A DNA stretch of 64,000 nt, taken from the IMG/VR virus record IMGVR_UViG_3300045988_112441; one strand, 5' to 3'. The position numbers and the translations under genes are program-made. Positions 222 through 64,000 of the stretch are shown here, one piece after another. Numbering within the stretch: the first letter of the stretch is position 1; the number at the start of each line of letters is the position of its first letter. Source of the DNA: a virus. Below the pieces are notes generated by a model. That model searched no databases. It was not told the origin of the DNA and saw only the letters and a list, made by a program, of their open reading frames with translations.

Positions 222-224
222 TAA

Positions 225-40916: not shown

Positions 40917-40923
40917 ATATAAA

Positions 40924-40997: not shown

Positions 40998-41093
40998 TTA
41001 TATACTTGGCTTGCTGTGTCCTATTGCTCCATTTTTGGAGAGCCAAGAATAATAGGAAAGGTATTTTATGAAAAGCATGTTGGGAAACCAACT

Positions 41094-41166: not shown

Positions 41167-41169
41167 ATA

Positions 41170-41257: not shown

Positions 41258-41263
41258 ATATAT

Positions 41264-41295
41264 AGAAGCTGTATTTTTTTACAGCTTCTTTTTTA
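41264..41295 (+). terminator. Strong rho-independent terminator on the plus strand (antisense to the tRNA/HNH array)
   Basis: AGAAGCTGT-ATTTTTTT-ACAGCTTCT followed by TTTTTAT; 9-bp perfect stem. On the minus strand it is followed by ATATAT, so it is not a terminator in that orientation. Confidence 0.55.
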
Positions 41296-41301
41296 TCAAC
41301 G

Positions 41302-42198: not shown

Positions 42199-42390
42199 AA
42201 AATGCCTCCAACATCTAATAAATGAATATTCGGACTCTGGTGCCAAGGACGGTATTCGAAACCGCATGTGTTTCCACAGCGAGGTTTGGGCTCGCCCTGT
42301 CTCCCATTTGCAGCACCTTGGCATATATTGCCGGTCTTTCCCGGCTGTCAGCCCCGCTCAGGGCATTTTCGGAGGAAGAAAATGTCTTAA

Positions 42391-49032: not shown

Positions 49033-49248
49033 TCAAAAGTTATCCAAATCATTTTTAGCAGCTAACACATTGTAATGAATTTCATGCTCGTGTCCTTTTA
49101 CAGAATCATTTAATCTTTTAGCGATCCTTTCCGCTCCTTGTTTTGAAAATTGCCAACTTGCCGTTTTCTCTTTTGTCCATCCATCTATACATTTATATTT
49201 TTTGTACTCAATACCATTTTTTGTGGTTTTAATTACATAGAATTTCAT
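49033..49248 (-). CDS. Hypothetical protein
   Basis: ORF track. Confidence 0.4.
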   Translation of the reverse strand: MKFYVIKTTKNGIEYKKYKCIDGWTKEKTASWQFSKQGAERIAKRLNDSVKGHEHEIHYNVLAAKNDLDNF

Positions 49249-49279
49249 AGAATCCTCCTAGAACTTAACTTTTATCACA

Positions 49280-49579
49280 TCAACTACGTTCTTTAATCAA
49301 ACCATTATCCGATGCCTCTGCTCTTAATTTTATGAGTTCTTTCTTTGTTTCAAAATTTTTCTCATATCTTTCCATAAAAGCCCGAACGTTCATGTTCTTC
49401 TGGTTATTCGGAAAGATAAATTCATCTAAAATACCATCTTTTGTTACCGTATAAATATCCTTTGATGTATACTGTTTTTTCAATTTCACCTCAAAGCCAT
49501 GTTTTAATAGCCAAGAGATAGCTAGTTCCTCTTGTTTATTAAAGTCCCATTTTTTATTTTCAAGTCCTTGTAAATTCAT
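49280..49579 (-). CDS. Hypothetical protein
   Basis: ORF track. Confidence 0.4.
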   Translation of the reverse strand: MNLQGLENKKWDFNKQEELAISWLLKHGFEVKLKKQYTSKDIYTVTKDGILDEFIFPNNQKNMNVRAFMERYEKNFETKKELIKLRAEASDNGLIKERS

Positions 49580-49684
49580 AAGTCCACCTCATTCCATGCT
49601 TGCGCATTCTGTGATTATGCAAAGTTTAACAGCATAACCAGTTGTCGTTAAGCTTTTTACAGCAATTTCATAAGAACCCGGATT

Positions 49685-49900
49685 TTATCGACCATTGTGT
49701 ATTGCATTTTCGATCTTGCCATTGATAGAATCGATTTCACGCATCAGCCTACAACGATAGTTTCCGTTCTTATCAAGTCTGAAACACAAATCCTCATCGT
49801 CACTCTTGTAACCAATATAGCATCCAGACCGACACAAGCTCGTCGCATCAAGCGCATCTTGTATAACTCGTGCTTCATTGAGAGTCAAATCAATCTTCAT
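49685..49900 (-). CDS. Hypothetical protein
   Basis: ORF track. Confidence 0.35.
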   Translation of the reverse strand: MKIDLTLNEARVIQDALDATSLCRSGCYIGYKSDDEDLCFRLDKNGNYRCRLMREIDSINGKIENAIHNGR

Positions 49901-49915
49901 TGTTGTCCACCACCT

Positions 49916-50203
49916 TTATTCTTCTGCCTTTCCACCAACTCCGGCGATAAACACCCGATGCTTTCCATTCTCGTCACGCTGCCAATCACCACCAAGCATC
50001 TCAATCGTATTCAAGACTGTATGGTAAATCTCAACGGAATCCATTGCCTTTTCTTCATCTCCAAAATCATTGGTATGAATCCAACGCCAATTATTATCCA
50101 ACCAGCTGACAACTTTCATAACACCAGCCCGCAGTTCTTTTTCTTTCGTGTTTGTCATTTTTTCACTCCTTTGTTTTACATATCCTGGTTCACAGCATTC
50201 CAT
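49916..50203 (-). CDS. Hypothetical protein
   Basis: ORF track. Confidence 0.4.
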   Translation of the reverse strand: MECCEPGYVKQRSEKMTNTKEKELRAGVMKVVSWLDNNWRWIHTNDFGDEEKAMDSVEIYHTVLNTIEMLGGDWQRDENGKHRVFIAGVGGKAEE

Positions 50204-50685
50204 ACCTCAGTCGAAATCATGTCGTTCTCATCGGATAGGCGACTAATCCAAGCATTGAGCACTTCACGGTACACTGTCATATTTGGACAAAAATGACTGT
50301 TGGTGAATACCGGCATATCGTCATTACACAGAATTCTCATGATGGCAGCGCACACAGCGGCAGATCTCGATACGCCAGCAGCACAATTCACGCAGAACCA
50401 ATCGGTCTTATCTGCTTCGTGGTTATCCAAGACAAATTTCACAATATTCCTAGCTTGAACATCCGTAATGCATGTACCTTCCAGATCAGTAGTACAATCA
50501 TCAAACTTCAGCGGTAGAAAAGTAATATTACCCTCACACTTATGAAAATCAATATGATGGCCATTAGCTTCAGTGATTGAGATAAACCGAATCCGTTCAA
50601 AATGTGGCTGTCGGATAAAGTCTTCTGCATCTTCTGCGCTCATCACCGAGAATTTCCATTTTCTTCGATACATAGTAATAATCAT
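50176..50685 (-). CDS. Dual-specificity/protein-tyrosine phosphatase-like (CX5R)
   Basis: CVNCAAGVSRS active-site signature. Confidence 0.55.
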   Translation of the reverse strand: MIITMYRRKWKFSVMSAEDAEDFIRQPHFERIRFISITEANGHHIDFHKCEGNITFLPLKFDDCTTDLEGTCITDVQARNIVKFVLDNHEADKTDWFCVNCAAGVSRSAAVCAAIMRILCNDDMPVFTNSHFCPNMTVYREVLNAWISRLSDENDMISTEVWNAVNQDM

Positions 50686-50870
50686 TTCTCATCATCCTTC
50701 TTTAACAACACTTGTTTTAAATATTCTGGTGTTAGTTCTCTTATCGTTCCATCTTCCTCTTGAATCATTGGCACTTTATATTCTGACGATAACGGAACAT
50801 TATACTTTTTACAAAGACTCAGGAACAATTCACGATTAAACATCAAGCTCTCCTTCAACAAATACTCCAC
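50682..50870 (-). CDS. Hypothetical protein
   Basis: ORF track. Confidence 0.35.
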   Translation of the reverse strand: MEYLLKESLMFNRELFLSLCKKYNVPLSSEYKVPMIQEEDGTIRELTPEYLKQVLLKKDDEK

Positions 50871-51238
50871 GAGTCATTCCATGCACTCAATTCTTCTAAC
50901 TCATTCCAAATCTGGTCAGAAATATCTTTAATAACAGGATGCTTCTTTACCTGTTCCCATACAATTCTTGTTTCTTCTACGGTAAAATCCCCATAAATAT
51001 TGTTAAACCACTTTACTAGAACCGGATTAGTACCTTCCGGGAAAACAATCTTTTCATGTTCTGTGTTATCAGAACTCATAAAACCAAACCAATAATCGAG
51101 TGATCCGTCAACTTCAGAATCTCTTTTCTCTTTAATATATTTACTTTCTACTCCACCAAAAATTTTTGCAACCTCACACAACTCTCTGTCAAATCGTGGA
51201 TAGCTAGAGCTTCCAGAATAACGATAACCCATACCCAT
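50855..51238 (-). CDS. Hypothetical protein
   Basis: ORF track. Confidence 0.4.
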   Translation of the reverse strand: MGMGYRYSGSSSYPRFDRELCEVAKIFGGVESKYIKEKRDSEVDGSLDYWFGFMSSDNTEHEKIVFPEGTNPVLVKWFNNIYGDFTVEETRIVWEQVKKHPVIKDISDQIWNELEELSAWNDSWSIC

Positions 51239-51259
51239 AATTATTTTCCTCCAAAGAAT

Positions 51260-51535
51260 TTAGGTTTTATTGTTTTCATAAAGTTTTAACATAATTTCTA
51301 GCGAAACAGAATCCAGACTACCATATTGAACCAAATTAAGCGCCATGTAAAAATTCCTTCGAATATTAAAGTCCACTACGTCCTTTATCTCACCGCCTTT
51401 TTGAGCGTGATACAAAATATTATTTAACTTAAACAGTTCCTGATAACTTAACTTGACAACGGCATCACCATCCGTATCTTTTGGATTTTCATTTCCATTA
51501 AAACTCAGAATATTCATATTTGCACCTCCAGTCAA
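51260..51535 (-). CDS. Hypothetical protein
   Basis: ORF track. Confidence 0.4.
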   Translation of the reverse strand: MTGGANMNILSFNGNENPKDTDGDAVVKLSYQELFKLNNILYHAQKGGEIKDVVDFNIRRNFYMALNLVQYGSLDSVSLEIMLKLYENNKT

Positions 51536-51735
51536 ATATCCAAGTCTTTAAAATCAACCACTTCTGATTCACCATCATATTCAATATCTACATTCGATAA
51601 ATATGTTTTGTACGTCTTTTCACGACGTATAGCAGCTTCCATACTCGGACGTCGAATATCATAAAGCAACTGTTTAAGTTCTTCATCCGTCAAATTGTAC
51701 TCTTCTTGCAACATACTCATATCCACACCTCTCAA
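51532..51735 (-). CDS. Hypothetical protein
   Basis: ORF track. Confidence 0.35.
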   Translation of the reverse strand: MRGVDMSMLQEEYNLTDEELKQLLYDIRRPSMEAAIRREKTYKTYLSNVDIEYDGESEVVDFKDLDI

Positions 51736-51821
51736 TCAAAACGCAAACGGATTGTTATCCACTGTTGTTATCAGTGCCACATTCAAAATAAACATTACAA
51801 ACGCGGTCATTCCATATTACC

Positions 51822-52010
51822 TCAATCTCTAAATTCAATATCTACAACAATATTCTCAGGCTCTGTCATGTACCTTCGTGCCAACAGCTCTACCATACGT
51901 TCCTTGTCACCAAGATTGCTTTCTCGTAAAATATACGAAGCAACTTGCTTGCCTCTGTACAAAAATACGGCCCAAGCGCTTCTCCTTAGCGGATTTGAAA
52001 CACCAATCAT
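51822..52010 (-). CDS. Hypothetical protein
   Basis: ORF track. Confidence 0.35.
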   Translation of the reverse strand: MIGVSNPLRRSAWAVFLYRGKQVASYILRESNLGDKERMVELLARRYMTEPENIVVDIEFRD

Positions 52011-52351
52011 TCCATCGCTTCCTCCAGAGAGGTAGTCACATCACCAAAGTCAAAATCCAGAGCACCAATCATATCATCCAGAGCATCCACAGTATCAGAC
52101 AGATTCGTGCAAGCATTATCTGCTTTATCGTACCGCTCACTCCCCTGCAAATTCTCCGGCATGTTATCACGATACTCTTCTTCTTCCCATTGGATATCCT
52201 CAACATCGGATTTTACACTTTCGACCTCAGATACAAGTTCTTCCAGCTTCTTACGGATGGAATCAAAGCGGTCAATGGTCTGTTTTATAGCTTTTCTACG
52301 AGTGTTATTCATTTTCAAATCTCCTCTCAATCTACAATACCAAGCTTGCAA
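52007..52351 (-). CDS. Hypothetical acidic protein
   Basis: ORF track. Confidence 0.4.
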   Translation of the reverse strand: MQAWYCRLRGDLKMNNTRRKAIKQTIDRFDSIRKKLEELVSEVESVKSDVEDIQWEEEEYRDNMPENLQGSERYDKADNACTNLSDTVDALDDMIGALDFDFGDVTTSLEEAME

Positions 52352-52728
52352 ATGTTTTTCGGATCAGTAATGTAGCCAAATGTCAATGTATTACGAAGAT
52401 ATCCCTTGTATTCAAATCCACGGTCACGAGCCGCCAGACGGCACACATCCCGAATCGCAGATTCTCTCGGCCAAGAAATACCAGCCAACTGATACTTCCA
52501 CTGAAGATCTCTCAGCTTCTGCCACTCAATCACAGGTTTTTTCTCATCCTCGAAACACAAACCATTCTGTACCGCATACTTTAGAGCATCGCACCGTTTA
52601 CTCTCTTCCGATGTGCAAATGCCCCAATCATTTTCAAGACGACGATACGCCCTGTTAAATGGTGCTTGCTTTGCCGCATCAATACCAAACGCTGCTCCAA
52701 GCAGACCCAAACCAAGTAACAGTCCCAT
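52327..52728 (-). CDS. Hypothetical secreted protein
   Basis: N-terminal signal-like LLLGLGLLGAAFG. Confidence 0.4.
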   Translation of the reverse strand: MGLLLGLGLLGAAFGIDAAKQAPFNRAYRRLENDWGICTSEESKRCDALKYAVQNGLCFEDEKKPVIEWQKLRDLQWKYQLAGISWPRESAIRDVCRLAARDRGFEYKGYLRNTLTFGYITDPKNICKLGIVD

Positions 52729-52743
52729 ATTTTAAACCTCCAT

Positions 52744-53427
52744 TTATGCTGTTTCCAATTCTCTTTTAACCAACGGACGACGTTTCGTTGCGTTTTTTAA
52801 CCAATCGTTTCCACTAGGGGCTTGTCTATCCACTCTTGTATTGCGACCACAACCAATCGGACACACCCGGCGGTAATCATCAGCTGTCTTGCAGCCAAGA
52901 GATTCAGCTTCGTCCAGTGCTTTTCGCACATAAGCCCATGTATTACCGCCCAGATCAGAACACTTTCCAATTACAGCAAGTACGAGTTTATCACCCATGC
53001 GTTCAACATATTCTGCCAAAGCCTTCTTTCCTGTAGCACTGAGCTTCCCAATATTCTCTCGAAAAACATCCTCGACAGATTTCGTCGTTGTCGTCTCATC
53101 ACAAGACGAAGACGATATCTTATCTTTTTCTTTCTCTTCTTCTTTTTCTAGCTTGGTTTTGCTTGCGCTTGCTTCGCTTTGCTTACGCTTGCTTGATGAG
53201 CCACCAGCTTTACCAGAAATCCTCTTACCTTCGATGTATTCGGCATCTTTATCCAAATCTCTCTTCACGGCAGGCCACACATACCGCTCATTTCCGTTGA
53301 GTTCAGGCTCCGTTCCAGACGATTTATATTTCATCATCGCCAGTACCAGACGCCCCACCTCGGCAGCACTAATGGGTTCAAAGTAGCTCTCGTAAGTATC
53401 CCAGATTTTAATATAAGTATCAGCCAT
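52744..53427 (-). CDS. Putative replication initiation/replisome-organiser protein (DnaD-like C-terminal region)
   Basis: Low-complexity S/K/E linker, then TWAYVRKALDEAESLGCKT. Position next to the integrase. Confidence 0.3.
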   Translation of the reverse strand: MADTYIKIWDTYESYFEPISAAEVGRLVLAMMKYKSSGTEPELNGNERYVWPAVKRDLDKDAEYIEGKRISGKAGGSSSKRKQSEASASKTKLEKEEEKEKDKISSSSCDETTTTKSVEDVFRENIGKLSATGKKALAEYVERMGDKLVLAVIGKCSDLGGNTWAYVRKALDEAESLGCKTADDYRRVCPIGCGRNTRVDRQAPSGNDWLKNATKRRPLVKRELETA

Positions 53428-53435
53428 AACACACC

Positions 53436-54275
53436 TCAGTCTTCCAAGCTGTGTGTATTCACACCATAAAAAGTCTTCTTATAATATTCTTTTGCCTTAT
53501 CCTCATCAAAACCAACGTACCGTAATGTAATATCCTGACTACTATGATTCAACTGACCCTGAATCCAAGACAATGCCTGGTTATCATCCTTATTAAGACA
53601 CATCTCACGATAACCAAATGTCTTACGGCAAGAATGAGATGCAATCTTATAATTAAGACCCAAATCTTTGCCAGCGTTACGAAGAATACGAGCAAAAGAA
53701 TCAACATCAATAGGATCACCGGCCTTTTTGGGTTCTGCAATATGAGGAATACCAGTTTTCCCATCTCCACCATTTGTCCTCAACGACTTTTTCCAGCTCC
53801 CCTGCCGAGACGGAAACATCCAATCGTCATATCCAAGTTTCGCAATCTTAATATATGTTTCAACAATATCCCTCGCTTCTGGAGTAAGGATGATTTCTCG
53901 ATACTTGGACGTTTTTTCTTCAACGATACACACTCCAGCGTCTTCAACCACTTCAATTTTTCCATTATAAAGGCAATAAGACATATCGGAAACTTTCAAT
54001 TTGAGTAAATCACTAGCACGTAACCCGGTTGCGATACCTACGTTAAATAGACACCAATTGCGATATTGCTTTTTATCCCAGAAGTATTCCGAAATCATTT
54101 GAACATCATCCAAGCTTCTAATTGGAGAAATATTACGCTTACGCTTCTGCTTACTTCTTGTAACACCACGTTTTTTAGCCGGAACAGAAGGTTTCGGATT
54201 AAAATAAATCAATTTAGGTATCTGTTCTTCTTTTCTTTCAACAACTGCGCTCATTATATTCACCTCAAACTCCAT
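53436..54275 (-). CDS. Tyrosine recombinase/integrase (second copy)
   Basis: GLRASDLLKLKVSDM, HSCRKTFG, LNHSS...TLRYV (R..H-x-x-R..Y). Confidence 0.75.
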   Translation of the reverse strand: MEFEVNIMSAVVERKEEQIPKLIYFNPKPSVPAKKRGVTRSKQKRKRNISPIRSLDDVQMISEYFWDKKQYRNWCLFNVGIATGLRASDLLKLKVSDMSYCLYNGKIEVVEDAGVCIVEEKTSKYREIILTPEARDIVETYIKIAKLGYDDWMFPSRQGSWKKSLRTNGGDGKTGIPHIAEPKKAGDPIDVDSFARILRNAGKDLGLNYKIASHSCRKTFGYREMCLNKDDNQALSWIQGQLNHSSQDITLRYVGFDEDKAKEYYKKTFYGVNTHSLED

Positions 54276-54489
54276 ACTTCAAACAATACTTACCGTAAGA
54301 TAATCCTTCAGCATCTGCCATTCTTACAATCTCAACAAATGTTGGTTTATGTTTCTTTTTATTCTTGCATCGAATGGATGCCTCATTTCTTATTATCTTA
54401 CGACATTCATCACAATAGAGCTTTCCACATTTAGGACCATACCATGTAATGCCACAGCGATTACACGTTATGTTTCCATATACCATCAT
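54265..54489 (-). CDS. Small zinc-ribbon protein
   Basis: CNRCGITWYGPKCGKLYCDEC. Confidence 0.4.
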   Translation of the reverse strand: MMVYGNITCNRCGITWYGPKCGKLYCDECRKIIRNEASIRCKNKKKHKPTFVEIVRMADAEGLSYGKYCLKYGV

Positions 54490-54758
54490 AATTTACACCT
54501 CAAACTTGTCAATTTTCCAATGATGTCGATAGTAATTTCCAGAATTCCCACTAACAACGGACACCTTACATGAATCACACCACGTTTCGTCCTGTTTCAC
54601 ACTATTTCCTTACGAATCCCGGCAGTCCTTATAAAGCAAGAACATCTTTTCAGACAACTTCTCTTTATCTTTGTTAATAGTAATAATATTACCTTCTGCG
54701 TAAAAATCGCTAGAGTCGATACATTCGTGTAAAATATGAATCGTCATTTTTATATACC

Positions 54759-55382
54759 TCAATTCTTTTCAAACAGATCGTTACGAACCTTCGGAGTAAA
54801 TTGACGCGAGTCAAGCTGTTCAATAGCAGCCTCAAGCCGACCATGGCCCCAATCATCGTTATTTCGATGGTTCATCACAATCTCAAGCAGAAGCTTTGCA
54901 TCCTTAGCTTCTCTGCGCTTCCGGCGAGCTCTTTTAAGTTCTGCCATAAGCTGATAGCCTTGCGCTGCATTTACAGTTTTGAACTCTATTGCGTGTTCAA
55001 TATCAGCAATCTCATCGCTAGCCGCAGTTAAATCACTGTAGACTTTGGCATATAAATCATCGAGGCTGGTCATTGTTTTGTCTGTGACCTCAAGATTTTT
55101 CTTCAACTCTATCAGCCATTCAGAATCTTCCATGTGAAATGCGTATGTATTTGGCTTTACAGCCGGAGCCGTTATATTCGGACTCTTGCCTGCGATGGTA
55201 GCTTCATCCATAGATTTTGGTGCATAGCGTCCGTTCTTATACCCAGCGGGAAGTTTATTGATTTCACAGATTGCCAGCCCCTTTGATTCAAACTGCAATG
55301 CCAGATTGATATCACAGGTGGCGCAGATTCGACCTCCCTTCCGTTTCATAATATAGTTATGACCATTCGAGATTACATACAT
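54759..55382 (-). CDS. Hypothetical protein
   Basis: ORF track. Confidence 0.4.
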   Translation of the reverse strand: MYVISNGHNYIMKRKGGRICATCDINLALQFESKGLAICEINKLPAGYKNGRYAPKSMDEATIAGKSPNITAPAVKPNTYAFHMEDSEWLIELKKNLEVTDKTMTSLDDLYAKVYSDLTAASDEIADIEHAIEFKTVNAAQGYQLMAELKRARRKRREAKDAKLLLEIVMNHRNNDDWGHGRLEAAIEQLDSRQFTPKVRNDLFEKN

Positions 55383-56690
55383 TTACTTATTCTCCTGTCC
55401 TTTCATCAGCTGCTTCACAGTCTTCTTAAATAGCGCGAGATTCTTTTCATTTTCGATAAACACCTTAGTCTTCGTATGCGGTGCCTTACCGTGTGCCTTT
55501 TCGTAAGCCACAAACAAATTATTCATTTTCTTATAGCCAATATGCTCATAAATCAGAGTGTAAGTGTGCTTATATTGTGGCTTGTCACCAAGTTTTTCCG
55601 CCAGAGGCATCATGATTGGAAAAAGGATCTTCGCCGTCTCACTCTGTTTCTTGTTCTTAAGTTTTTTGTTAACGACTTCTTTAGCTACCACATCAATCAC
55701 AGGAGTAACGTTCATATTTGTTTCAGAAACTGCTTCGACAGCCTTTGGAGTCGGACGAAGTTCATTCTGATTCTGATGCAGACGCTCGATAGATGCTACG
55801 TACATATCTGCAACAACAGCCTCCATGATAGATTTCCAAGTGGAATCCTCTTCGATAATGTCGATTATTGAAATTTTCCCACTACGATTCGTTCTCTTAA
55901 TATACTTTGCACGAGCATCTTCCAAAACAAAACCATAATTACGATTCAGATATTCATAGATCTTGTGAAGCGTTTCTTTATTTGTGTAACCTTTAGTATT
56001 TGCAATCACACCAATCTTGCTATACAAATCTTTACGCCAGTCACTCATTTCATCCCGAAACACATTGCGAGGAGTATAGCTCTTAGCACGAATCGAATTA
56101 TCCATCTGCTTATCCTTAATCTGATGGACACACTGAGACACGCTGCTGATTACATTCAGTGCTTCGTTGCTAGTAGCACGAGCTTCCTCAATTTGGTCAC
56201 CGAGCTCCTTGCGAGTGGAATCAAGTTCACTCTGAAGGTTCTTCATACTATCAAACAGAGCGTGAAGTCTTACATCAATAAATTCTTTACTCAGTGCAGC
56301 ATCCATCTGAGGCGTAGCCAGAACGGTGTCACCACGCATCAAGGATTCCATGATGTCCCAGCAGAAATCCATGAACGCATCTGCTTTCGGCTGACGTGAC
56401 AGACGGCAGATTTCCATAACACCACGCAAACTGTAAACAATATATTCACGTTCCTTCGTGATTCCGCCCTCAACTTTCCTCAGTTTGAGGAATGTTGAAA
56501 GAGGGTCAAGACGATCCGTATTCTTAACATGGATGTTTTGAATTGCCTTATTAGGATTATTGTACTCTAGCGCTGCACCAATTTGTTCACGAGTCATGTA
56601 ATACTGATGCTTGTCATTCTGGTACACATCCACATTCAGTACACCAAAGGGCTTAGAGGTTATTACGGTCATAGGATTATTAGTAGTCAT
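55383..56690 (-). CDS. Phage antirepressor-like protein (ORF6N/Bro-N-type N-terminal domain)
   Basis: FGVLNVDVYQNDKHQYYMTREQIGAALEY resembles an ORF6N/Bro-N domain; 435 aa. Confidence 0.45.
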   Translation of the reverse strand: MTTNNPMTVITSKPFGVLNVDVYQNDKHQYYMTREQIGAALEYNNPNKAIQNIHVKNTDRLDPLSTFLKLRKVEGGITKEREYIVYSLRGVMEICRLSRQPKADAFMDFCWDIMESLMRGDTVLATPQMDAALSKEFIDVRLHALFDSMKNLQSELDSTRKELGDQIEEARATSNEALNVISSVSQCVHQIKDKQMDNSIRAKSYTPRNVFRDEMSDWRKDLYSKIGVIANTKGYTNKETLHKIYEYLNRNYGFVLEDARAKYIKRTNRSGKISIIDIIEEDSTWKSIMEAVVADMYVASIERLHQNQNELRPTPKAVEAVSETNMNVTPVIDVVAKEVVNKKLKNKKQSETAKILFPIMMPLAEKLGDKPQYKHTYTLIYEHIGYKKMNNLFVAYEKAHGKAPHTKTKVFIENEKNLALFKKTVKQLMKGQENK

Positions 56691-56709
56691 TTTTGTTTAC
56701 TCCCTACAC

Positions 56710-56961
56710 TCACTCTTTAATCATAAGTTGTTCTTTAGTCCATCGCATCATCTTAGTGCATTCATCTGTAGACGTATTTTCCCAGATAAAGACTCTGCCT
56801 TCGCCAGTTTCTTTATCAATTTCCGTGCAAGACAAATCAATTTGAACGCCATCTTCTCTCTGAAGATAAATGTAAATTCCTGGATAATCTTTATAATCTC
56901 CATCAGCTTCAGCAACCAGTTTTCCAATAGGCGTATCAATTTCAAATCTCTTTTCATTCAT
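56710..56961 (-). CDS. Hypothetical protein
   Basis: ORF track. Confidence 0.4.
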   Translation of the reverse strand: MNEKRFEIDTPIGKLVAEADGDYKDYPGIYIYLQREDGVQIDLSCTEIDKETGEGRVFIWENTSTDECTKMMRWTKEQLMIKE

Positions 56962-56990
56962 ATTACCATCTCCTTAGAAGAACTGTTTTA

Positions 56991-57251
56991 TCAAATCTCT
57001 ACGATTTTCCACCAGTCGTATACGTCACAAGCATCAATACGAATATCACCTTTTAATCGCAAAACACTAAAATTCTGTTCACCGTTTTCATCTTTATAAT
57101 ATTTACAATAATGATTTACAAGAATATCGTCCACTTGTTTGTTCATTTCATTTTCCGCCTCAAGAATCGTATTAAAACCCTTTTTATAAACAACTTCTGG
57201 GAGAAATGAATTCTCACCTTTTGCAATATAAATATTGATAAGCAAAAACAT
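56991..57251 (-). CDS. Hypothetical protein (trimmed to the Met with a GAGGAGG RBS)
   Basis: The trimmed start removes the overlap with 57266..57478. Confidence 0.35.
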   Translation of the reverse strand: MFLLINIYIAKGENSFLPEVVYKKGFNTILEAENEMNKQVDDILVNHYCKYYKDENGEQNFSVLRLKGDIRIDACDVYDWWKIVEI

Positions 57252-57265
57252 TTTGTTTCCTCCTC

Positions 57266-57478
57266 TTAAAACTGATACTTCCAAAAGATTCGTGCGTTGC
57301 CGGTAATATCTTGCAAGCAAGAAATGTACTCCCGGAACGAAATCAGCCCTTGTATTTTTATAACCCATGCTCGCTTTGCACGAACTGCAATCGCTGGATC
57401 GTACTTCACAGCATCATCAAATGCACTGTCGGTCATCTTACGTTCAAAGTAACGAATTTCGTTGATATTCATAATCAT
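57266..57478 (-). CDS. Hypothetical protein
   Basis: ORF track. Confidence 0.35.
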   Translation of the reverse strand: MIMNINEIRYFERKMTDSAFDDAVKYDPAIAVRAKRAWVIKIQGLISFREYISCLQDITGNARIFWKYQF

Positions 57479-57678
57479 TTCTCCTCTGTCTCACTCAGTT
57501 TCTTTTCAAAATCTTCGAGTTCTTCATAATCTTCATCTGTGAGATAATCGTCGATCTCAATATCCAAAAGGATATAACACTGCGCCTGCAAAGCAACATA
57601 CGCATCATCCGCACTCATTCCATTTTCAATAAGAACCTGTGCTGCTTCCATGAGTTTATCATTCATAGTTCGTTCCAT
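57475..57678 (-). CDS. Hypothetical acidic protein
   Basis: ORF track. Confidence 0.35.
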   Translation of the reverse strand: MERTMNDKLMEAAQVLIENGMSADDAYVALQAQCYILLDIEIDDYLTDEDYEELEDFEKKLSETEEK

Positions 57679-57695
57679 TTTCTAAAACCTCGATT

Positions 57696-58013
57696 TTATT
57701 TAATTTCAATATTCATTTTGCTAAATAAATATTTAGCAGATTCTTCAATCGCATCAATAGACCAAACATTAGGATTACACACACCAAGAATTTTATCGCC
57801 AGAAGCATTGTAACGTGCATCACAAAAATGCCACCAGCTATTATCGCCAGCATCATATTCATAATAAACATCCACATCAATTTCAGGGTGACCATCTACA
57901 TGATATTTAATCTGATCTTTATCATTAAATGTATCCGGTTTGTATCCACGTCCATTCCATCCAGAAGGATTCATTTTAGAAAGAAAATCTCTTGCAATCT
58001 CACGTGCCGTCAT
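57696..58013 (-). CDS. Hypothetical protein
   Basis: ORF track. Confidence 0.4.
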   Translation of the reverse strand: MTAREIARDFLSKMNPSGWNGRGYKPDTFNDKDQIKYHVDGHPEIDVDVYYEYDAGDNSWWHFCDARYNASGDKILGVCNPNVWSIDAIEESAKYLFSKMNIEIK

Positions 58014-58203
58014 AAGTTAATGCCCCCAAAATAAAAGCTTTTTCTGAATCAAAAGGTTTTAGTAACTCACATTTGTTGGTTTCTTCATTAAAAATACCAA
58101 CTGTCACACCTTCTCTTAACCAATATGAAAGTGTATCAAGAGCTTCCTTAACTTCGTCCACTGAATGATCCCATCCGCAATTTTGGATAATCATAACTCT
58201 CAC
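58000..58203 (-). CDS. Hypothetical protein
   Basis: ORF track. Confidence 0.35.
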   Translation of the reverse strand: MRVMIIQNCGWDHSVDEVKEALDTLSYWLREGVTVGIFNEETNKCELLKPFDSEKAFILGALTYDGT

Positions 58204-58218
58204 TCCCTTAATTCCTCA

Positions 58219-58437
58219 TTATATTATTATCTTATCCTCACCAAGCGTTTCGGTTTCATACGTTGCATAGACAAGCTCTGTCGGCTTGCTGTAACACATT
58301 TTCATCCAGTTAAGTTCTGCGTTACGCAGCTCTTTTGTAGGATAGACTTCATGCCCTCTATATGTATCGCCGTACATAAAGTGTCTGACAGAGTATTCAA
58401 GATGGTAATACATTATTTTTCTCTCAGCTCCTCGCAC
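58219..58437 (-). CDS. Hypothetical protein
   Basis: ORF track. Confidence 0.35.
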   Translation of the reverse strand: MRGAERKIMYYHLEYSVRHFMYGDTYRGHEVYPTKELRNAELNWMKMCYSKPTELVYATYETETLGEDKIII

Positions 58438-58610
58438 ACTTTAGCAATGATAGCAAGACCATTACGACGAAAATCAGCATTGTAAGGATTTTGTGCCATA
58501 ATATCTAGCGAATGCAACAAATTTTCTAAATCAAGGTTATACTCAACACCTGCTACATCGCAAAGCGTCTCCGTCATTTGTTTAATGTCATATTTTATAG
58601 TAATTCTCAT
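58413..58610 (-). CDS. Hypothetical protein
   Basis: ORF track. Confidence 0.35.
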   Translation of the reverse strand: MRITIKYDIKQMTETLCDVAGVEYNLDLENLLHSLDIMAQNPYNADFRRNGLAIIAKVCEELREK

Positions 58611-58625
58611 AATAAAACTCTCCTT

Positions 58626-58862
58626 TTACATCAATTTGTTAGAAATATCAAATGCTTTCCATCTGAAACCAAATTCATCCGTCCAAACCTGTGCCTCGAG
58701 TTCGTCACTATCATAATAAGCCAGAACATTAGGAAGGTCAGAATACATTGCATGGCATTCTTTCGAATCATCCACGATATATTTCATAACTTCTTTTTCG
58801 TTTTGAAAAAACTCAGGCTCAAAAATTTCACCTTTAGAACCACATTTGATAACACACCACAT
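58626..58862 (-). CDS. Hypothetical protein
   Basis: ORF track. Confidence 0.4.
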   Translation of the reverse strand: MWCVIKCGSKGEIFEPEFFQNEKEVMKYIVDDSKECHAMYSDLPNVLAYYDSDELEAQVWTDEFGFRWKAFDISNKLM

Positions 58863-58865
58863 AAC

Positions 58866-59360
58866 TTATACCTTACTAAAATTTGCATTAAAAAGAATCT
58901 CATTACCATATTCAGTAAGAGTATCCTTAAACCACTTTTCGTTCTTTTTCCACCACGACTCAGCTTGTTGCGAAGTCAATACAATTCCTTTTTTCTTCGC
59001 TGCATCAATAACGTCATCGATACACCAACGAGTTTCAGCAAACTAATACTGATTTACGTCATCATCCTTTTCCTGTTCGTCTTCAATATAGTTATGGCAA
59101 TAGTTGGTGTAGAAATCCACATCAAAAAGTGTGATAGTCATATCATTGCCGCTTAATTCACGTTCAACGTCAGCTACTTCTTCTCTGAGATACAGCTCAG
59201 ACATAATACCGTCTTCATGTTCCTGAATCCATTTCTCTGTAATATTGAACTTTTTCGCCAGTTCATCGACCTCAAACACCCATGTGCCATAATTCGTGTT
59301 TTCAGTGCCATACTTCACCATATAATCAGCAATCTGACGTTCCATCATATTATCATCCAT
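58866..59360 (-). CDS. Acidic protein (paralog of 63089..63412) with a TAG stop followed by a 58-codon in-frame protein-like extension
   Basis: The ORF-track product (105 aa, ...FDVDFYTNYCHNY...VNQY) ends at TAG 59043-45. The same frame continues: FAETRWCIDDVIDAAKKKGIVLTSQQAESWWKKNEKWFKDTLTEYGNEILFNANFSKV, ending at TAA 58866-68. The extension has no ATG of its own and exactly fills the intergenic gap. Confidence 0.4.
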
Positions 59361-59389
59361 GGTATTTCCCTCCTAAAATTCAACATTTA

Positions 59390-60289
59390 TCAAAAGCGCC
59401 AGCTAGTTGTAACAACCTTTTTTGCTTCGCCTTCTTCGTATTTGTTATTTTTAATAGCTTCTTCTAAACCATTACCTGCATTGTAGGCCATACCATTTTG
59501 AACAAGATCATCTCCAAGAAAACCACCACAAGAATCAATTTCAACCCAATTGGATTCGGCGCTTTCTTCGACATCATCTTCTACAAAACCATCCTGTTCA
59601 TAAAGCGTATACCCATACACTTCACCAGTCAGATAGTTGTTATATGCCTCAACGTCAAGTTCCATATTTTTTTCAGCAATAGCTTTATTCTTTTCGTTAA
59701 AGTCAGAAAGAACAGTAACAATCCATCCAGCGCAACTTGAATCAAACGTATCATTGTAAGGATATGTCCGATCTCCGCAGCTCATCGTGATTACGCTGTG
59801 TTCGTAAATCCAAAGAGGAAGCCAAACCACTTTCTTTTCAAGCAATTTCATACAATCACGAATGGAAAAATCTCCTCTTGAATACTGAACAAGATCATCA
59901 TAAAACAGATTTCTCCAAGAATATTCTTCTTCATTTGGAATCCAATCGTTTGACTCAAAATCATTGACGCAAATTGCCCAATAATCATTATCGTCATCCT
60001 GGTCGTGATATTGAACTGCACATGTATCAAATAACTTTTTGTTTACAAGTGCATCAAGAACTTCCTTGTCGTCGCAATACTTCCAAACAAGGTTATTCCA
60101 AAAACTTTCCGGTGTATCTGCTTCAATAAAGTCTCCAAGTTTATAATTCCCATAAAAGCAAGCCATAATAGAATCATGGTCATAATCACGAGGGTTACAC
60201 TCTTCGCCATTGTCTGCCCAAATATGTAAACAATAATTTATATCGTTGTCTGTCCATTTTATGGTTTCATTATCATAGCAATATAACAT
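59390..60289 (-). CDS. Highly acidic protein (possible DNA-mimic/anti-restriction candidate)
   Basis: 299 aa, very rich in D/E with aromatic residues; no catalytic motif. Confidence 0.4.
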   Translation of the reverse strand: MLYCYDNETIKWTDNDINYCLHIWADNGEECNPRDYDHDSIMACFYGNYKLGDFIEADTPESFWNNLVWKYCDDKEVLDALVNKKLFDTCAVQYHDQDDDNDYWAICVNDFESNDWIPNEEEYSWRNLFYDDLVQYSRGDFSIRDCMKLLEKKVVWLPLWIYEHSVITMSCGDRTYPYNDTFDSSCAGWIVTVLSDFNEKNKAIAEKNMELDVEAYNNYLTGEVYGYTLYEQDGFVEDDVEESAESNWVEIDSCGGFLGDDLVQNGMAYNAGNGLEEAIKNNKYEEGEAKKVVTTSWRF

Positions 60290-60308
60290 ATTTAAAATCT
60301 CCCTTTTA

Positions 60309-60503
60309 TCAATCTTTTTCTTTCACAAAAATCATCAGCATATTGAACTCTGGTGTGATGAAGTCAACCGTGTAGCGTCTTGCTTCTGAAATTTCAAGAA
60401 GAGAATTATTATTGTAACATTCAATTTCTTCGCCTGAATTACAATCACAAAGCGTAAAGCTAATGTCATCCGGAATAATTGAAAGTAAAGTAAGCAGTTC
60501 CAT
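60309..60503 (-). CDS. Hypothetical protein
   Basis: ORF track. Confidence 0.35.
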   Translation of the reverse strand: MELLTLLSIIPDDISFTLCDCNSGEEIECYNNNSLLEISEARRYTVDFITPEFNMLMIFVKEKD

Positions 60504-60516
60504 ATTCCATCACCTC

Positions 60517-60789
60517 TTATGCACTAGCCTTTTCTTCAAAAGCGTACCAATCAGACCAAATCTTATCGACCTCGCCATTCTTAAAACCGTTCTTGTAATC
60601 AGTGAACTCAACATAATAGTTGCTTGTCCACTCATTCAGATAGTGTTCATAGATGGCTGCGACTCCACGCTTTGTTTCAACGACAAAACTATCAACCAGA
60701 ACACCTTCAACATAAGCACCAGTGTATTGTGCTTTATTCTGGTGCATCCAACGGCCAAGAGTACCCGCATCCAAATAAAAACGTGTCAT
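60517..60789 (-). CDS. Hypothetical protein
   Basis: ORF track. Confidence 0.4.
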   Translation of the reverse strand: MTRFYLDAGTLGRWMHQNKAQYTGAYVEGVLVDSFVVETKRGVAAIYEHYLNEWTSNYYVEFTDYKNGFKNGEVDKIWSDWYAFEEKASA

Positions 60790-60802
60790 AATTCATTCTC
60801 CT

Positions 60803-61051
60803 TTACTCTGCAATCATCATAGCAAGAACCGGCTCGCCAGAATCCTTCAATTGAAGTTCTAGAATATCACCATCATCAACGATTTCGCACTTATTAAGAT
60901 AATCTTGAAGGAAGAACATCTGACATTCTTGCCAGAAGATTTCTCTCGGGTTTTCGTTCTCATCTACAAATACATCCTTGTGATGGAAAGATCCGTTCCA
61001 AACCCAACTTTCACCATCAAAACAAGCGTGGACTTCTCTCAGATCCCACAT
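60803..61051 (-). CDS. MWDL-family small protein (tandem paralog 1)
   Basis: Starts MWDLREV. Upstream region shares ATCCCACATAGTTAATCCTCC with the next copy. Confidence 0.4.
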   Translation of the reverse strand: MWDLREVHACFDGESWVWNGSFHHKDVFVDENENPREIFWQECQMFFLQDYLNKCEIVDDGDILELQLKDSGEPVLAMMIAE

Positions 61052-61053
61052 AG

Positions 61054-61299
61054 TTAATCCTCCAAAGTTTTAGAATGTCTTAAAATAATAATTTCTTTCA
61101 TTTCTTCTTTATCTCTTGCGGTAGGAAGAACAAAAAAGGAAGAATACTCTGGAAAATAAAAAGAAATACAAAAACTAAGTATCATATACATGATTGTGAA
61201 GTAATGACCTGTTTGTTTGTTCTTGAACTTTGCTCTTCCGATTTTATATTCTTCAGAGTATTCATCTTTAATTAAATCCCACATAGTTAATCCTTCCAA
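61054..61299 (-). CDS. MWDL-family small protein (tandem paralog 2)
   Basis: Starts MWDLIKDEYSEEYKIGRAKF. Confidence 0.4.
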   Translation of the reverse strand: MEGLTMWDLIKDEYSEEYKIGRAKFKNKQTGHYFTIMYMILSFCISFYFPEYSSFFVLPTARDKEEMKEIIILRHSKTLED

Positions 61300-61508
61300 A
61301 AGTTGAGTTTCTTTTTGATTGTCATCTCAATTTCGTCTTTATCACCGTCAGATAGAATCTTATTATCGTACTCGGAATAGCAAAACATAACGCTACGGCC
61401 ATTATATTTATACATAACCATTGCTGTTTTTAATTGTTTGTCACGAAAAAAGGTTGCACACCCAATTCCATATTTTTTAGAATATTCATTTTCAACTAGA
61501 TCCCACAT
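61287..61508 (-). CDS. MWDL-family small protein (tandem paralog 3)
   Basis: Starts MWDLVENEYSKKYGIGCATF. Confidence 0.4.
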   Translation of the reverse strand: MWDLVENEYSKKYGIGCATFFRDKQLKTAMVMYKYNGRSVMFCYSEYDNKILSDGDKDEIEMTIKKKLNFWKD

Positions 61509-61512
61509 TTTA

Positions 61513-62025
61513 TCACCTCAAAATCTCCTTGAGCATCTTTACCATACCTTCGTAATCTTTATCATCGGCACCCAGCATACGAACCGTCATATCAAAATCA
61601 ACTGTCTGACAATCACTGAAATCGTATTGTTCAATATCATTACTACAAGTGTCAGGGTAATGTTCTTCGAGCCGGTCTTTCGTACCACAGTCACAGAAGG
61701 TTCCAGAATAATAATCACTGGCCGACTCACCTGTTTTCATATACACACGGATACCATCTGTGACAATCACTTTAGCGAACCGCTTCATATCTTCTGGCGT
61801 AAAGGTCTTATCCATAACATCATACGAATAGACCATGTAACAAGTTTTATCAGGCTCATAAATATCCTGTTCCTTATCTGCACCAAACGCTCTAGCGTAT
61901 CCACCAGCCCATCCACCACAAAACACAAGAATTTCTTTTCCCGCTTCGATAGCTGCCATATATTCCTCTTCAGGAATCGCTACAATTCTTCCGTTAGGAA
62001 AAATAAAACCTTCAAATTCTCTCAT
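61513..62025 (-). CDS. Hypothetical protein
   Basis: ORF track. Confidence 0.4.
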   Translation of the reverse strand: MREFEGFIFPNGRIVAIPEEEYMAAIEAGKEILVFCGGWAGGYARAFGADKEQDIYEPDKTCYMVYSYDVMDKTFTPEDMKRFAKVIVTDGIRVYMKTGESASDYYSGTFCDCGTKDRLEEHYPDTCSNDIEQYDFSDCQTVDFDMTVRMLGADDKDYEGMVKMLKEILR

Positions 62026-62029
62026 TTTA

Positions 62030-62239
62030 TCACTCCTCTGCGTCTTTTACCGTAACACTATCAATGTCCGTCGGATTCGGATTATCTGGTTCAATCTCAC
62101 CGGCAACAAATCTATCTTTCGCAATTTCATAAGCATCATCTTTGTTGTCTGCTTCTACAAACGTTGTGTAAGTAACTCTTGTTTCAATAGTAACGTAATA
62201 GCCGTTCATTTTACACACTCCCAACATTCTTGAATCCAT
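62030..62239 (-). CDS. Hypothetical protein
   Basis: ORF track. Confidence 0.35.
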   Translation of the reverse strand: MDSRMLGVCKMNGYYVTIETRVTYTTFVEADNKDDAYEIAKDRFVAGEIEPDNPNPTDIDSVTVKDAEE

Positions 62240-62483
62240 AAAGGCTATAACCTTTACATTTGAAATACCGCATCGCTTTGTTAATCTGAGAAGAGCTTGC
62301 TGTCGAATGGCTTTTTAGGTATGTATTCTTATATTCACACAGCTTCTTATACTCATCACTTTCACGATGGGCTTTCAGCTTTTTGCAATGGTCGTGGCAA
62401 CCAGGATAACGCTCCGGTGCCACGCAATAATGGCATGGATCAGTCAATTTCTGCCACCTCCCCAGCTTCATAAAAAGCAACAA
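62211..62483 (-). CDS. Cys/His-rich zinc-binding protein
   Basis: CHYC...CHDHCKK. Confidence 0.35.
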   Translation of the reverse strand: MLLFMKLGRWQKLTDPCHYCVAPERYPGCHDHCKKLKAHRESDEYKKLCEYKNTYLKSHSTASSSQINKAMRYFKCKGYSLYGFKNVGSV

Positions 62484-62622
62484 CGTAGGATTGAGCTATT
62501 CTTTTATCCTTCCATCTATACGGAGTAATAATAACCTTGCCGCTCATCCATGTTTGTTCAACATGATACCAGCCATCAATATAAACAATCTTCATTCTTT
62601 TGTATTTCATATTCCACCTATC

Positions 62623-62910
62623 TCATTTATTAGACTTGCACTGATATTTGCGTTCAATCATCTCTGCATCAGCGCAAGTCATACCGTAATACCAACGCAC
62701 ATCAACAACGGATTCAACCCAGTTTCCAGTCTTGCGGTTCTTTATGACACGAACCTCTTCAACATCTTTGTGAATCTGTGTGCCTGGCTTCGGGAGATAA
62801 GTCAAAACACTTTCTTCAGAATGTTCCAAATCGTAAGAGCCAACAAATGTGCAATCACGTTTGATCAAATCAAAAATTTTCTTGCGGTTCTGTTTAGACA
62901 GGTTTCTCAT
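62623..62910 (-). CDS. Hypothetical protein
   Basis: ORF track. Confidence 0.4.
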   Translation of the reverse strand: MRNLSKQNRKKIFDLIKRDCTFVGSYDLEHSEESVLTYLPKPGTQIHKDVEEVRVIKNRKTGNWVESVVDVRWYYGMTCADAEMIERKYQCKSNK

Positions 62911-63092
62911 ATTGCAAACTCCTTTTCTCTTGTAAACTTAATCACCAACGCATTCACGTTGGCTGCTTCAATCGTGCTTGCTCTTGCATCCTCGTGATTG
63001 CCAGCTCTGAGGAACGAAACACTCTGATCCATCAGCTTACGCCGATATGAAGAAAGAGCTGCGAGAACGATATTCTTTTCAGTGTTGGTCAT
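62907..63092 (-). CDS. Hypothetical protein
   Basis: ORF track. Confidence 0.35.
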   Translation of the reverse strand: MTNTEKNIVLAALSSYRRKLMDQSVSFLRAGNHEDARASTIEAANVNALVIKFTREKEFAI

Positions 63093-63412
63093 ACAATCTC
63101 ACTCCAATTTTTATCCTCTACATTGGGACAAAATTTTGTATAAAAATCAACGTCAAAAGTTTTCACATAAAAATTAGAGCCTTCTTGTAGAGTACATTCC
63201 ACATCAGCAACCGATTCGTGTTCATAAAGTGAATCAAAAATCTCTCCACAATAGGCCGCAACAAACATTTTGCTTACGTTAAATTCTTTTGTGATTTCGT
63301 CAATATGAAAAATCCAATTGCCTTCTGTAGTATTTTTTGTACCTTCTTTGACCATCCATTCGGCAATCTGCTTCACAACTTTGCTTTCGTCCATTTTTAT
63401 CACCTCAATCAA
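63089..63412 (-). CDS. Acidic protein, paralog of 59043..59360
   Basis: Shares ...W.F..DE..K.FN...F...FDVDFYT.. with the 59043 gene. Confidence 0.4.
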   Translation of the reverse strand: MIEVIKMDESKVVKQIAEWMVKEGTKNTTEGNWIFHIDEITKEFNVSKMFVAAYCGEIFDSLYEHESVADVECTLQEGSNFYVKTFDVDFYTKFCPNVEDKNWSEIV

Positions 63413-63642
63413 AACTGAACCACTTCATGTTTGACTTTCTCCAGCATCTCTTTCTCTTGTTCTTCAAGACGCTCAACCTCATATAAAACGCTGTGAATAC
63501 CATAAATAATCAATTCACGATCTCGTTCACGGTTCGCTTTGTTTTCAAGGTTGCTTTTACAACTTCCTTTGCATAATTCGATTTCTCTAAGAACAAGATT
63601 ATCGATTGCGTATTTTAGAATCCGTTTATCTTTCTCAGTCAT
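63409..63642 (-). CDS. Hypothetical coiled-coil protein
   Basis: ORF track. Confidence 0.35.
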   Translation of the reverse strand: MTEKDKRILKYAIDNLVLREIELCKGSCKSNLENKANRERDRELIIYGIHSVLYEVERLEEQEKEMLEKVKHEVVQF

Positions 63643-63651
63643 ATTATCACC

Positions 63652-63819
63652 TCAATCTTCGTAAAATGCTTTCTTATTCTGACATTTGTAGAATGCAATT
63701 ACCTCGTGAACATACTCAGGATCGTCATGAATTCGCAACGAAAATACTTCGTTTGCTTTCTTTTTGGTGCATCCAAACTCCCAGCAAAACGCTTCAATAA
63801 AATCTCTCCGAATGTTCAT
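63652..63819 (-). CDS. Unlisted ~55-aa Cys-containing ORF
   Basis: MNIRRDFIEAFCWEFGCTKKKANEVFSLRIHDDPEYVHEVIAFYKCQ... Confidence 0.25.
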   Translation of the reverse strand: MNIRRDFIEAFCWEFGCTKKKANEVFSLRIHDDPEYVHEVIAFYKCQNKKAFYED

Positions 63820-63842
63820 TTTTTTGTTACTCCTGCTCCATC

Positions 63843-64000
63843 GTTACGCAAATCAAAGGCTCATCAGGATATGCTTCTTCGTCAGAAAAACACACACCCT
63901 TTGACACCCCCTGACCTGAAGTTCTTTCCAGTCTCCGAATTCAGTATTGGTATACATTCCAAAAACCAATTCGGTATTTTCGTCATAGCCAAACTCTTTC
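63843..64000 (-). CDS. Partial CDS (C-terminus only; continues beyond the window)
   Basis: ...KEFGYDENTELVFGMYTNTEFGDWKELQ... is open to the window edge. Confidence 0.3.

Follow-up and report, generated by a model that had tools for sequence, protein, structure and literature searches.

In a 64,000-nucleotide (nt) stretch of viral DNA (IMG/VR record IMGVR_UViG_3300045988_112441; hereafter the window), whose genes all lie on the minus strand, a gene of 164 codons carries an in-frame TAG at codon 106. We propose that open reading frame (ORF) 59043..59360, which ends at this TAG, and the frame that continues beyond it constitute one gene, and that the TAG is decoded as tryptophan by an amber-suppressor tRNA of the phage itself. 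We assign this reading a probability of about 0.75. Four findings carry it: a conserved TGG codon in the orthologs; purifying selection downstream of TAGs in an HNH homing-endonuclease gene; a phage tRNA with the anticodon CUA; and a near-identical strain that bears both this tRNA and the TAG. An earlier note on this DNA had suggested that TAG serves here as a sense or readthrough codon; the suggestion now is supported and can be made specific.

The 105-codon ORF runs from an ATG at 59360, preceded by a GGAGG ribosome-binding site at about 59373–59369, to the TAG (Table 1). Past the TAG, this frame stays open for another 58 codons (FAETRWCIDD...NANFSKV), as far as a TAA, and a spacer of three nucleotides (GTT) separates this TAA from the following gene's ATG at 58862. 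The layout described in the earlier note therefore was reproduced in its coordinates, in the filling of the intergenic gap, and in the lack of an ATG within the extension; an in-frame GTG is absent too, so that a TTG at 58979 is the sole alternative start. The extension also had been called protein-like, and its codon usage agrees. It scores 0.345, compared with 0.329 ± 0.140 for in-frame 58-codon windows and −0.501 ± 0.192 for off-frame windows, and not a single off-frame window of the phage genome scores as high.

A protein search with the fused sequence recovered 207 homologs in which the N-terminal part and the extension are covered as one ORF. Nearly all of the best 120 are exactly 164 amino acids (aa) in length, orthologs of this length align at 100% coverage, and they stop at the identical TAA. 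At the position of the window TAG, these 120 proteins have Trp (117) or Leu (3), and none has Gln. The DNA reads TAT TAG TTT in the window and TAT TGG TTT in five relatives, a single G-to-A change. Because the orthologs are single ORFs, and because one base distinguishes TGG from TAG, the extension is genuinely the C-terminal portion of a protein of 164 aa. The earlier note had looked to database homologs and to the paralog at 63089..63412 for a C-terminal domain that matches the extension. The paralog has none: it matches the N-terminal domain only, at 44% identity, and ends shortly past it. The decisive comparison thus came from the orthologs, in which the extension is fused.

An AlphaFold model of one ortholog (P0001), of low confidence (mean predicted local distance difference test score, pLDDT, 60), divides the protein into three parts: an N-terminal domain (residues 1–80); an acidic linker (81–111); and a helical C-terminal domain (114–158, with helices at 114–123 and 130–158). 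Residue 106 falls in the linker, which suggests that the stop sits at a domain boundary; termination there would yield a 105-aa product. Searches of Pfam and PHROGs recovered no function for the 164-aa protein, and the model is too weak for a fold search. In GenBank phages, blastn of the region gave zero matches, and tblastn gave distant matches to the N-terminal domain only, in Faecalibacterium phage FP_oengus, whose homolog is made of that domain alone. The C-terminal module weakly resembles two stand-alone small phage proteins, phrog_3893 (E 0.005) and phrog_15449 (E 0.05). Read with Trp at codon 106, the predicted tryptic peptide is DDDVNQYWFAETR.

Relatives differ in and around this gene. 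In IMG/VR contig 3300045988_107279 (L010:4439-4913), the ortholog has TGG changed to TGA at Trp137, so that an opal codon independently truncates its C-terminal domain. The homolog of window ORF 60803..61051 on this contig bears a TAG where Gln is the aligned residue. In loci L001–L007, two additional genes, for proteins of 111 aa and 76 aa, separate the 164-aa gene from the homolog of 58626..58862. Since the window lineage lacks these two genes, the TAG allele adjoins a deletion or cassette-exchange junction (58860..58866).

The argument that TAG is translated is clearest for the HNH gene. The earlier note had listed an HNH fragment as a further TAG event, and the event is real and stronger than described: the fragment belongs to a 298-codon gene with three in-frame TAGs (42135–42133, 42018–42016, and 41901–41899), all at Trp positions of the family, and with no other defect. 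Among five independent relatives (60–96% protein identity), every internal stop is TAG; internal TAA, internal TGA, and frameshifts are absent, and the true terminators are TAA or TGA. The TAGs fall on five positions, at all of which the close clade has Trp, and make a mosaic of TGG and TAG across lineages. The window gene and its counterpart in the related locus L017 have common TAGs at codons 61 and 100, at a synonymous divergence (dS) of 0.64, and downstream of these shared TAGs the ratio of nonsynonymous to synonymous divergence (dN/dS) is 0.07–0.10. A gene silenced by its TAGs would not show such values, which argues that the TAGs are translated. The window-type gene with three TAGs is present in four IMG/VR contigs, and the CUA tRNA accompanies it in 4/4. 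Read as Trp, sequences that span the TAGs are ...FTGQGWNK... and ...GNSEWMGK...; Logan gene calls render these TAGs as Q. Beside the HNH and tRNA-Leu cluster of a related phage, ARAGORN calls a tRNA with an 8-nt anticodon loop ('tccg'; L022:761-837 and L023:27-103), which could be frameshift-suppressor-like or a mis-call.

No suppressor tRNA is present in the window, and its tRNA cluster 1 includes none. In IMG/VR relatives, a second cluster lies outside the region that corresponds to the window, between the ClpP/PhoH/YonJ genes and the late operon. (Neighbouring loci were fetched with a 533-aa ORF that probably is an antisense artefact.) In this cluster, ARAGORN identified a tRNA with the anticodon CTA in 35 relatives and tRNA-Trp(CCA) in 8; the two occupy a common slot and never occur together. 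ARAGORN alone misplaces 16 genomes as suppressor-free, which a motif search and the Rfam tRNA model correct: the CTA type that it misses scores 40.0 bits (threshold 29) and forms a full cloverleaf with the anticodon loop CUCUAAA. The corrected typing of 75 relatives yields 51 with CUA, 7 with CCA, and 17 with neither.

The six CUA and the three Trp types agree in an invariant acceptor stem, in the discriminator G73, and in a CCA end that is encoded. They fit one cloverleaf, with compensatory changes in 13 of 21 pairs, and five of the six CUA variants are closest to phage tRNA-Trp among all phage tRNAs. Moreover, tRNA type goes with TAG usage. TAGs at Trp positions occur in the adjacent ~21 kb of 44/51 CUA genomes (mean 1.76 events), 0/17 genomes with neither tRNA, and 2/7 tRNA-Trp(CCA) genomes (Fisher's exact test, p = 6e-11; the counts are not phylogenetically independent, as IMG/VR dataset 3300045988 dominates the relatives).

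The tRNA and the codon-106 TAG come together in contig ENA ERZ28601055 scaffold_73 (L028, L254, L266). This contig differs from window positions 49043..64000 at 4 of 14,958 bases (99.97% identity). It carries the TAG allele and, directly after tRNA-Lys(UUU) of cluster 2, the first 62 nt of a CUA tRNA including the anticodon, where the locus ends; this tRNA is of the type that the Rfam model scores at 40.0 bits. In window coordinates the tRNA maps to about 83.4 kb, 19.5 kb beyond the window end at 64000. A second contig with the TAG allele, ERZ28599188 scaffold_11 (L256, L267), has another CUA type.

Some further features of these tRNAs deserve mention. At one locus among L174–L253 (GCGCCTATAATTCCAAGGTAGAAGTCAGGTTTTAGAAACCTG...), a suppressor-type tRNA has the anticodon loop TTTAGAA, with TAG at the anticodon position instead of CTA; because of this copy, the anticodon in the cluster 2 slot seems to change repeatedly. 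Both phage clusters supply mainly readers of A-ending codons. ARAGORN applies the label 'tRNA-Pyl', but pyrrolysine was rejected: the label reflects the CTA anticodon only, and the molecule has a standard cloverleaf, a 5-bp anticodon stem, and the acceptor stem of phage tRNA-Trp. Pfam families of the pyrrolysine pathway did not turn up in the gene tables of the loci, although no dedicated search for pyl genes was made.

How exceptional, then, is TAG as a terminator? Its rarity in the window, which the earlier note had remarked, is evident: stops of the 117 minus-strand ORFs are TAA (60), TGA (54), and TAG (3, among them the TAG at codon 106). That note also had counted two TAG-terminated ORFs, each with a coding-like continuation. 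Both events indeed are coding-like past the TAG, but the list was incomplete, since 10281..10565 and 92..235 likewise end in TAG. The TAG of 10281..10565 lies within TAGGAGG, the next ORF's ribosome-binding site, and for this reason has the appearance of a genuine terminator. Relatives, too, have several TAG ends that match homolog ends, some as tandem TAG TAG. Recoding is sparse in the window, with 4 in-frame TAGs compared with 326 TGG codons.

Surveys of the phage family addressed continuation past each stop. Raw continuation length is uninformative, because neighbouring genes often lie in one frame. The surveys therefore were restricted to coding-strand ORFs, by a simple selection of our own, and homologs were required to align across the stop; six-frame and two-strand versions were dropped, as off-frame and antisense ORFs align through DNA similarity. 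In the early region, homologs aligned across 24/56 TAG stops, compared with 9/472 for TAA and 5/442 for TGA. In the late region (29 loci nearer the lysis end), the corresponding fractions are 34/111, 3/317, and 2/258. The excess of continuation past TAG that the earlier note had proposed as a check accordingly appears in both regions. Two cases of TAG at a Gln position were found in the early-region survey; they belong to a background of ordinary nonsense alleles in small early genes.

Eighty late-region loci contain 95 events of TAG at Trp, at 13 sites, and no event of TGA at Trp. Because TGG to TAG and TGG to TGA are the same kind of transition, this asymmetry is not mutational. One late-gene peptide region around a TAG at Trp is AYNGSTWQFSETPANGK. 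Toward the other phage end (L024:13000-21167, minus strand), late and lysis-proximal frames have in-frame TAGs that gene callers leave unbridged: 'EINPWS*VATHIG' in the second gene past the Peptidase_M15 endolysin; and '...YTFV*SGGT...GSNS*SGTI...', where only a 33-aa gene is called.

The TAG sites proved to have no hairpin, stem-loop, or 3' context in common. Accordingly, A-to-I editing (UAG to UIG) and hairpin-stimulated readthrough were set aside as mechanisms: there is no consistent stem-loop, and the CUA tRNA makes both unnecessary. A suppressor or variant code that belongs to the host also is without support. Host genes were sampled next to the phage in 24 calls (about 14 distinct genes, a small sample); all are intact and end in TAA or TGA.

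The codon-106 TAG is not an assembly or sequencing error. The truncated 105-aa product occurs, as an exact match, in 381 indexed blocks of a public assembly collection, about as common as the commonest intact alleles, and TAG followed by an intact, open extension was seen in 9 loci from 7 independent assemblies (ENA ERZ28601055, ERZ28625104, ERZ28599904, ERZ28599188, and ERZ28598262; Logan SRR14017495 and ERR14205428). These loci differ from the window at 0–2 bases within the gene; their neighbouring genes do differ. Codon 106 is TGG in 8 IMG/VR contigs and 7 other loci. To judge from these sequences, the TAG allele is a young but very successful haplotype. It was not found in a scan of JGI metagenomes, and a scan of GTDB genomes gave chance matches only (Pelagibacter, Chitinophaga). 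Hypermutation was rejected as the source of the TGG-to-TAG change, since the gene's remaining differences from its relatives are ordinary. None of the 9 loci shows decay downstream of the TAG, and the allele is too young for any to be expected.

The lineage that carries the TAG allele also carries a stop of another kind. ORF 54610..54762 (minus strand) encodes 50 aa and ends in a TAA (54610–54612) where six homologs, which reach 84 aa, have GAA (Glu). Past this TAA, a protein-like continuation of 38 codons fills a 120-nt gap. What the lineage (L028–L031) shares here is a true ochre nonsense allele, which the CUA tRNA could not rescue.

These observations suggest the following model. In the gene for a two-domain protein of 164 aa, the Trp106 codon TGG has become TAG through a single G-to-A change. 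The phage tRNA(CUA), a relative of phage tRNA-Trp(CCA), would, when expressed, compete with release factor 1 at UAG, and insertion of Trp would restore the full-length protein. Ribosomes that terminate would release the 105-aa N-terminal domain, a product that resembles the stand-alone paralog. Because decoding competes with termination, the 164-aa and the 105-aa products both are expected. A change from TGG to TAG would be near-synonymous in this phage family, and such codons have built up in the HNH gene, in late genes, and in this lineage's 164-codon gene. We infer Trp as the inserted residue from three features: the sites at which TAG is tolerated; the kinship of the tRNA with tRNA-Trp; and its G73 discriminator.

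In the early 164-codon gene, the TAG could switch between the 105-aa and 164-aa isoforms, tied to suppressor expression; in the homing-endonuclease and late genes, suppression may delay or limit expression, by analogy with the gut phages of Borges et al. For the family as a whole, it seems likely that these widespread SPbeta-like phages of Faecalibacterium use natural UAG-to-Trp decoding through a diversified tRNA-Trp derivative, with an isoform switch as one possible use.

Several points weigh against this model. Concerning the family, TAG still ends a few genes; decoding therefore must be partial, and suppression describes it better than does a clean change of code. Not every TAG aligns with Trp: a few have Gln or Glu as their counterpart (Gln at about 3 sites in relatives), and the two CCA genomes with a TAG at Trp have one event each. 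The suppressor lies outside the window, and its copy in the near-identical contig is seen as the first 62 nt only. In addition, the su7 tRNA-Trp(CUA) suppressor of Escherichia coli is largely charged with Gln, which bears on the proposed Trp charging. Concerning codon 106 itself, the TAG allele appears young, its carriers being so nearly identical within the gene, and it is confined to one lineage, with no Gln at the position in the best 120 homologs. Ordinary nonsense alleles occur in similar small genes (GAA to TAA at 54610–54612; TGG to TGA at Trp137 in L010). Moreover, the N-terminal domain alone is viable as a paralog, so truncation could be tolerated without readthrough.

Most of the points about codon 106 also fit a plain amber mutation, the alternative that survives best and one that we nevertheless consider rather unlikely. 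By this account, the gene is accessory and dispensable, the G-to-A change put a stop at Trp106, the 105-aa N-terminal domain is the product that functions, and the 58 codons are a young, undecayed remnant; any readthrough by the suppressor is incidental. The distribution of the codon agrees, as all 15 loci examined at the DNA level outside the lineage have TGG and all 9 TAG loci lie within it. (A code-15 gene caller would write TAG as Gln, so the absence of Gln among the 120 homologs also tells against TAG elsewhere.) The near-identity of the carriers implies a recent allele, the lineage has a true TAA nonsense mutation in another small gene, L010 has TGG changed to TGA in this gene family, and both the paralog and the FP_oengus homolog manage with the N-terminal domain alone. 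Nevertheless, the strain contains a CUA tRNA, so that UAG is no clean stop while that tRNA is expressed; the frequency of the allele shows no obvious cost; and the late-gene bias of 95 TAG to 0 TGA events at Trp is unlike neutral nonsense mutation.

If TAG is translated, is the residue Trp? Decoding as glutamine (genetic code 15) seems very improbable. In its favor are the few relatives' TAGs that align with Gln, the Logan calls that translate the HNH TAGs as Q, and the mischarging of tRNA-Trp(CUA) by the E. coli glutaminyl-tRNA synthetase. For phages, moreover, no other reassignment of TAG has been described (Borges et al., bioRxiv 10.1101/2021.08.26.457843). However, Trp is the residue aligned with TAG in 117/120 homologs, at 5 sites of the HNH gene, and at no fewer than 13 sites in late genes, and Gln at about 3 sites. 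The window contains more CAG (376) than TGG (326) codons, so decoding as Gln would be expected to leave mostly TAGs at Gln positions, and in acceptor stem, discriminator, and genomic slot the tRNA matches tRNA-Trp.

The idea that the extension is an independent 37-aa protein, begun at TTG 58979 behind AAAAAAGGA, almost certainly is wrong despite the weak purine-rich stretch upstream of that TTG and the weak resemblance of the module to stand-alone phrog_3893 and phrog_15449: more than 200 homologs fuse the extension in frame to the N-terminal part and none has it as a separate gene, the TTG is a plain internal Leu codon in orthologs, and conservation begins directly at the TAG, 21 codons ahead of the TTG, so that the conserved block FAETRWCIDDVIDAAKKKG between the two would drop out.

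Table 1. Coordinates of the 164-codon gene and of related features in the window
Feature	Coordinates	Strand	Remarks
Codons 1–105 of one 164-codon gene	59046..59360	minus	N-terminal domain and acidic linker; from the ORF and matches to orthologs and paralog
In-frame TAG, codon 106	59043..59045	minus	In place of conserved TGG (Trp); proposed decoding as Trp by phage tRNA(CUA)
Codons 107–164	58869..59042	minus	Predicted helical C-terminal domain; from coding score, kept in all full-length orthologs
TAA, true terminator of the 164-codon gene	58866..58868	minus	Identical TAA in orthologs
HNH homing-endonuclease gene, 298 codons	41302..42198	minus	Between tRNA-Leu(CAA) and tRNA-Leu(UAA); three in-frame TAGs
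tRNA cluster 1	40384..42322	minus	Met/Ile2(CAT), Gly(TCC), Leu(TAG), Gln(TTG), Pro(TGG), Leu(TAA), Leu(CAA)

The window is roughly half of a temperate, SPbeta-like Faecalibacterium prophage of ~125–140 kb. Relatives of 125–140 kb contain SPbeta-type genes: YorF, YonJ, YonK, and a YonO-like RNA polymerase. Window positions 1..1659 make up the prophage end, with a tyrosine integrase at 225..1391 and, at 1465..1659, a Tn916-type Xis. In relatives, host genes lie directly next to the integrase (L025–L027:11392-21167); they have 60–69% G+C compared with about 40% for the phage, and one of them, a carboxyltransferase, bears the label 'MULTISPECIES ... [Faecalibacterium]'.

Other parts of these genomes merit brief comment. 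An operon that runs toward tRNA cluster 2, with ClpP, PhoH, YonK, and YonJ, includes a 927-aa protein that matches PF05183 (RdRP; L261 and L266–L275:12713-15496), consistent with a YonO-like single-subunit RNA polymerase. Some relatives have an additional RRXRR/HNH gene between ClpP and PhoH. Within 43133..45345 (minus strand), a 1-nt deletion past a G run at about 44602 (AAGTGGGG-CATG, compared with GGGGACATG in L017, L263, and L265) divides a 733-aa AAA_33/Metallophos/T4-RNA-ligase-like gene in two (ORFs of 297 aa and 495 aa). Possible explanations are a frameshift pseudogene, programmed frameshifting, and an error of assembly. In L017, the 733-aa gene ends in TAG, where the window has CAG and three sense codons before a TGA.

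If the proposed decoding is true, TAG to Trp would be a third phage pairing, besides TAG to Gln and TGA to Trp. A tRNA-Trp(CUA) would be working as a Trp-inserting suppressor in a host from the Clostridia, which bears on how synthetases constrain code change. Because members of the family differ in the suppressor trait (CUA, CCA, or neither), they may capture a change of the genetic code at an early, reversible stage; together with the few TAGs per genome, this polymorphism would make the family a rare natural example of the 'ambiguous intermediate' stage in codon reassignment, in prophages whose host is among the most abundant human gut bacteria. There also is a practical consequence. The HNH gene, late genes, and the 164-codon gene come out of standard gene calling split or truncated: as fragments, with Gln at TAGs, or not called.

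A literature search for TAG- or UAG-to-Trp decoding returned the context of Balanophora plastids only, and no phage case. Recoding of stop codons in phages that carry suppressor tRNAs reportedly also was studied by Ivanova and coworkers in 2014 and by Peters and coworkers in 2022. In the gut phages surveyed by Borges et al. (bioRxiv 10.1101/2021.08.26.457843), only TAG to Gln and TGA to Trp were observed; an intron endonuclease makes preferential use of the recoded codon, and regulation of late genes was proposed. The present family is alike in several respects: a host that appears to use the standard code; in-frame stops at the positions of one amino acid; a matching phage suppressor tRNA; and recoded codons concentrated in late genes and a homing endonuclease. 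It differs in the pairing, TAG to Trp; in its sparseness, with TAG still ending some genes; and in that the trait is polymorphic within one temperate family, as the tally of CUA, CCA, and neither attests.

Three other systems invite comparison. The plastid code of Balanophoraceae (NCBI table 32) also equates TAG with Trp, but through full reassignment in a reduced, AT-rich plastid, whereas here we propose partial suppression in a phage. Programmed readthrough, as for the Q-beta A1 protein and Gag-Pol of murine leukemia virus (MuLV), likewise yields a short and a long product from one mRNA, here of 105 aa and 164 aa; in the phage, however, the stop lacks conservation, with TGG in relatives, no conserved readthrough context or hairpin was seen around the TAG sites, and decoding would fall to a dedicated cognate tRNA instead of near-cognate ones. 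The closest parallel in the tRNA itself is su7 (supU) of E. coli, in which a tRNA-Trp body with the anticodon changed from CCA to CUA reads UAG, much as CUA and CCA alternate here in one slot. Yet su7 is a laboratory or host mutant that inserts mainly Gln, whereas the tRNA described here is phage-borne and occurs in at least six types.

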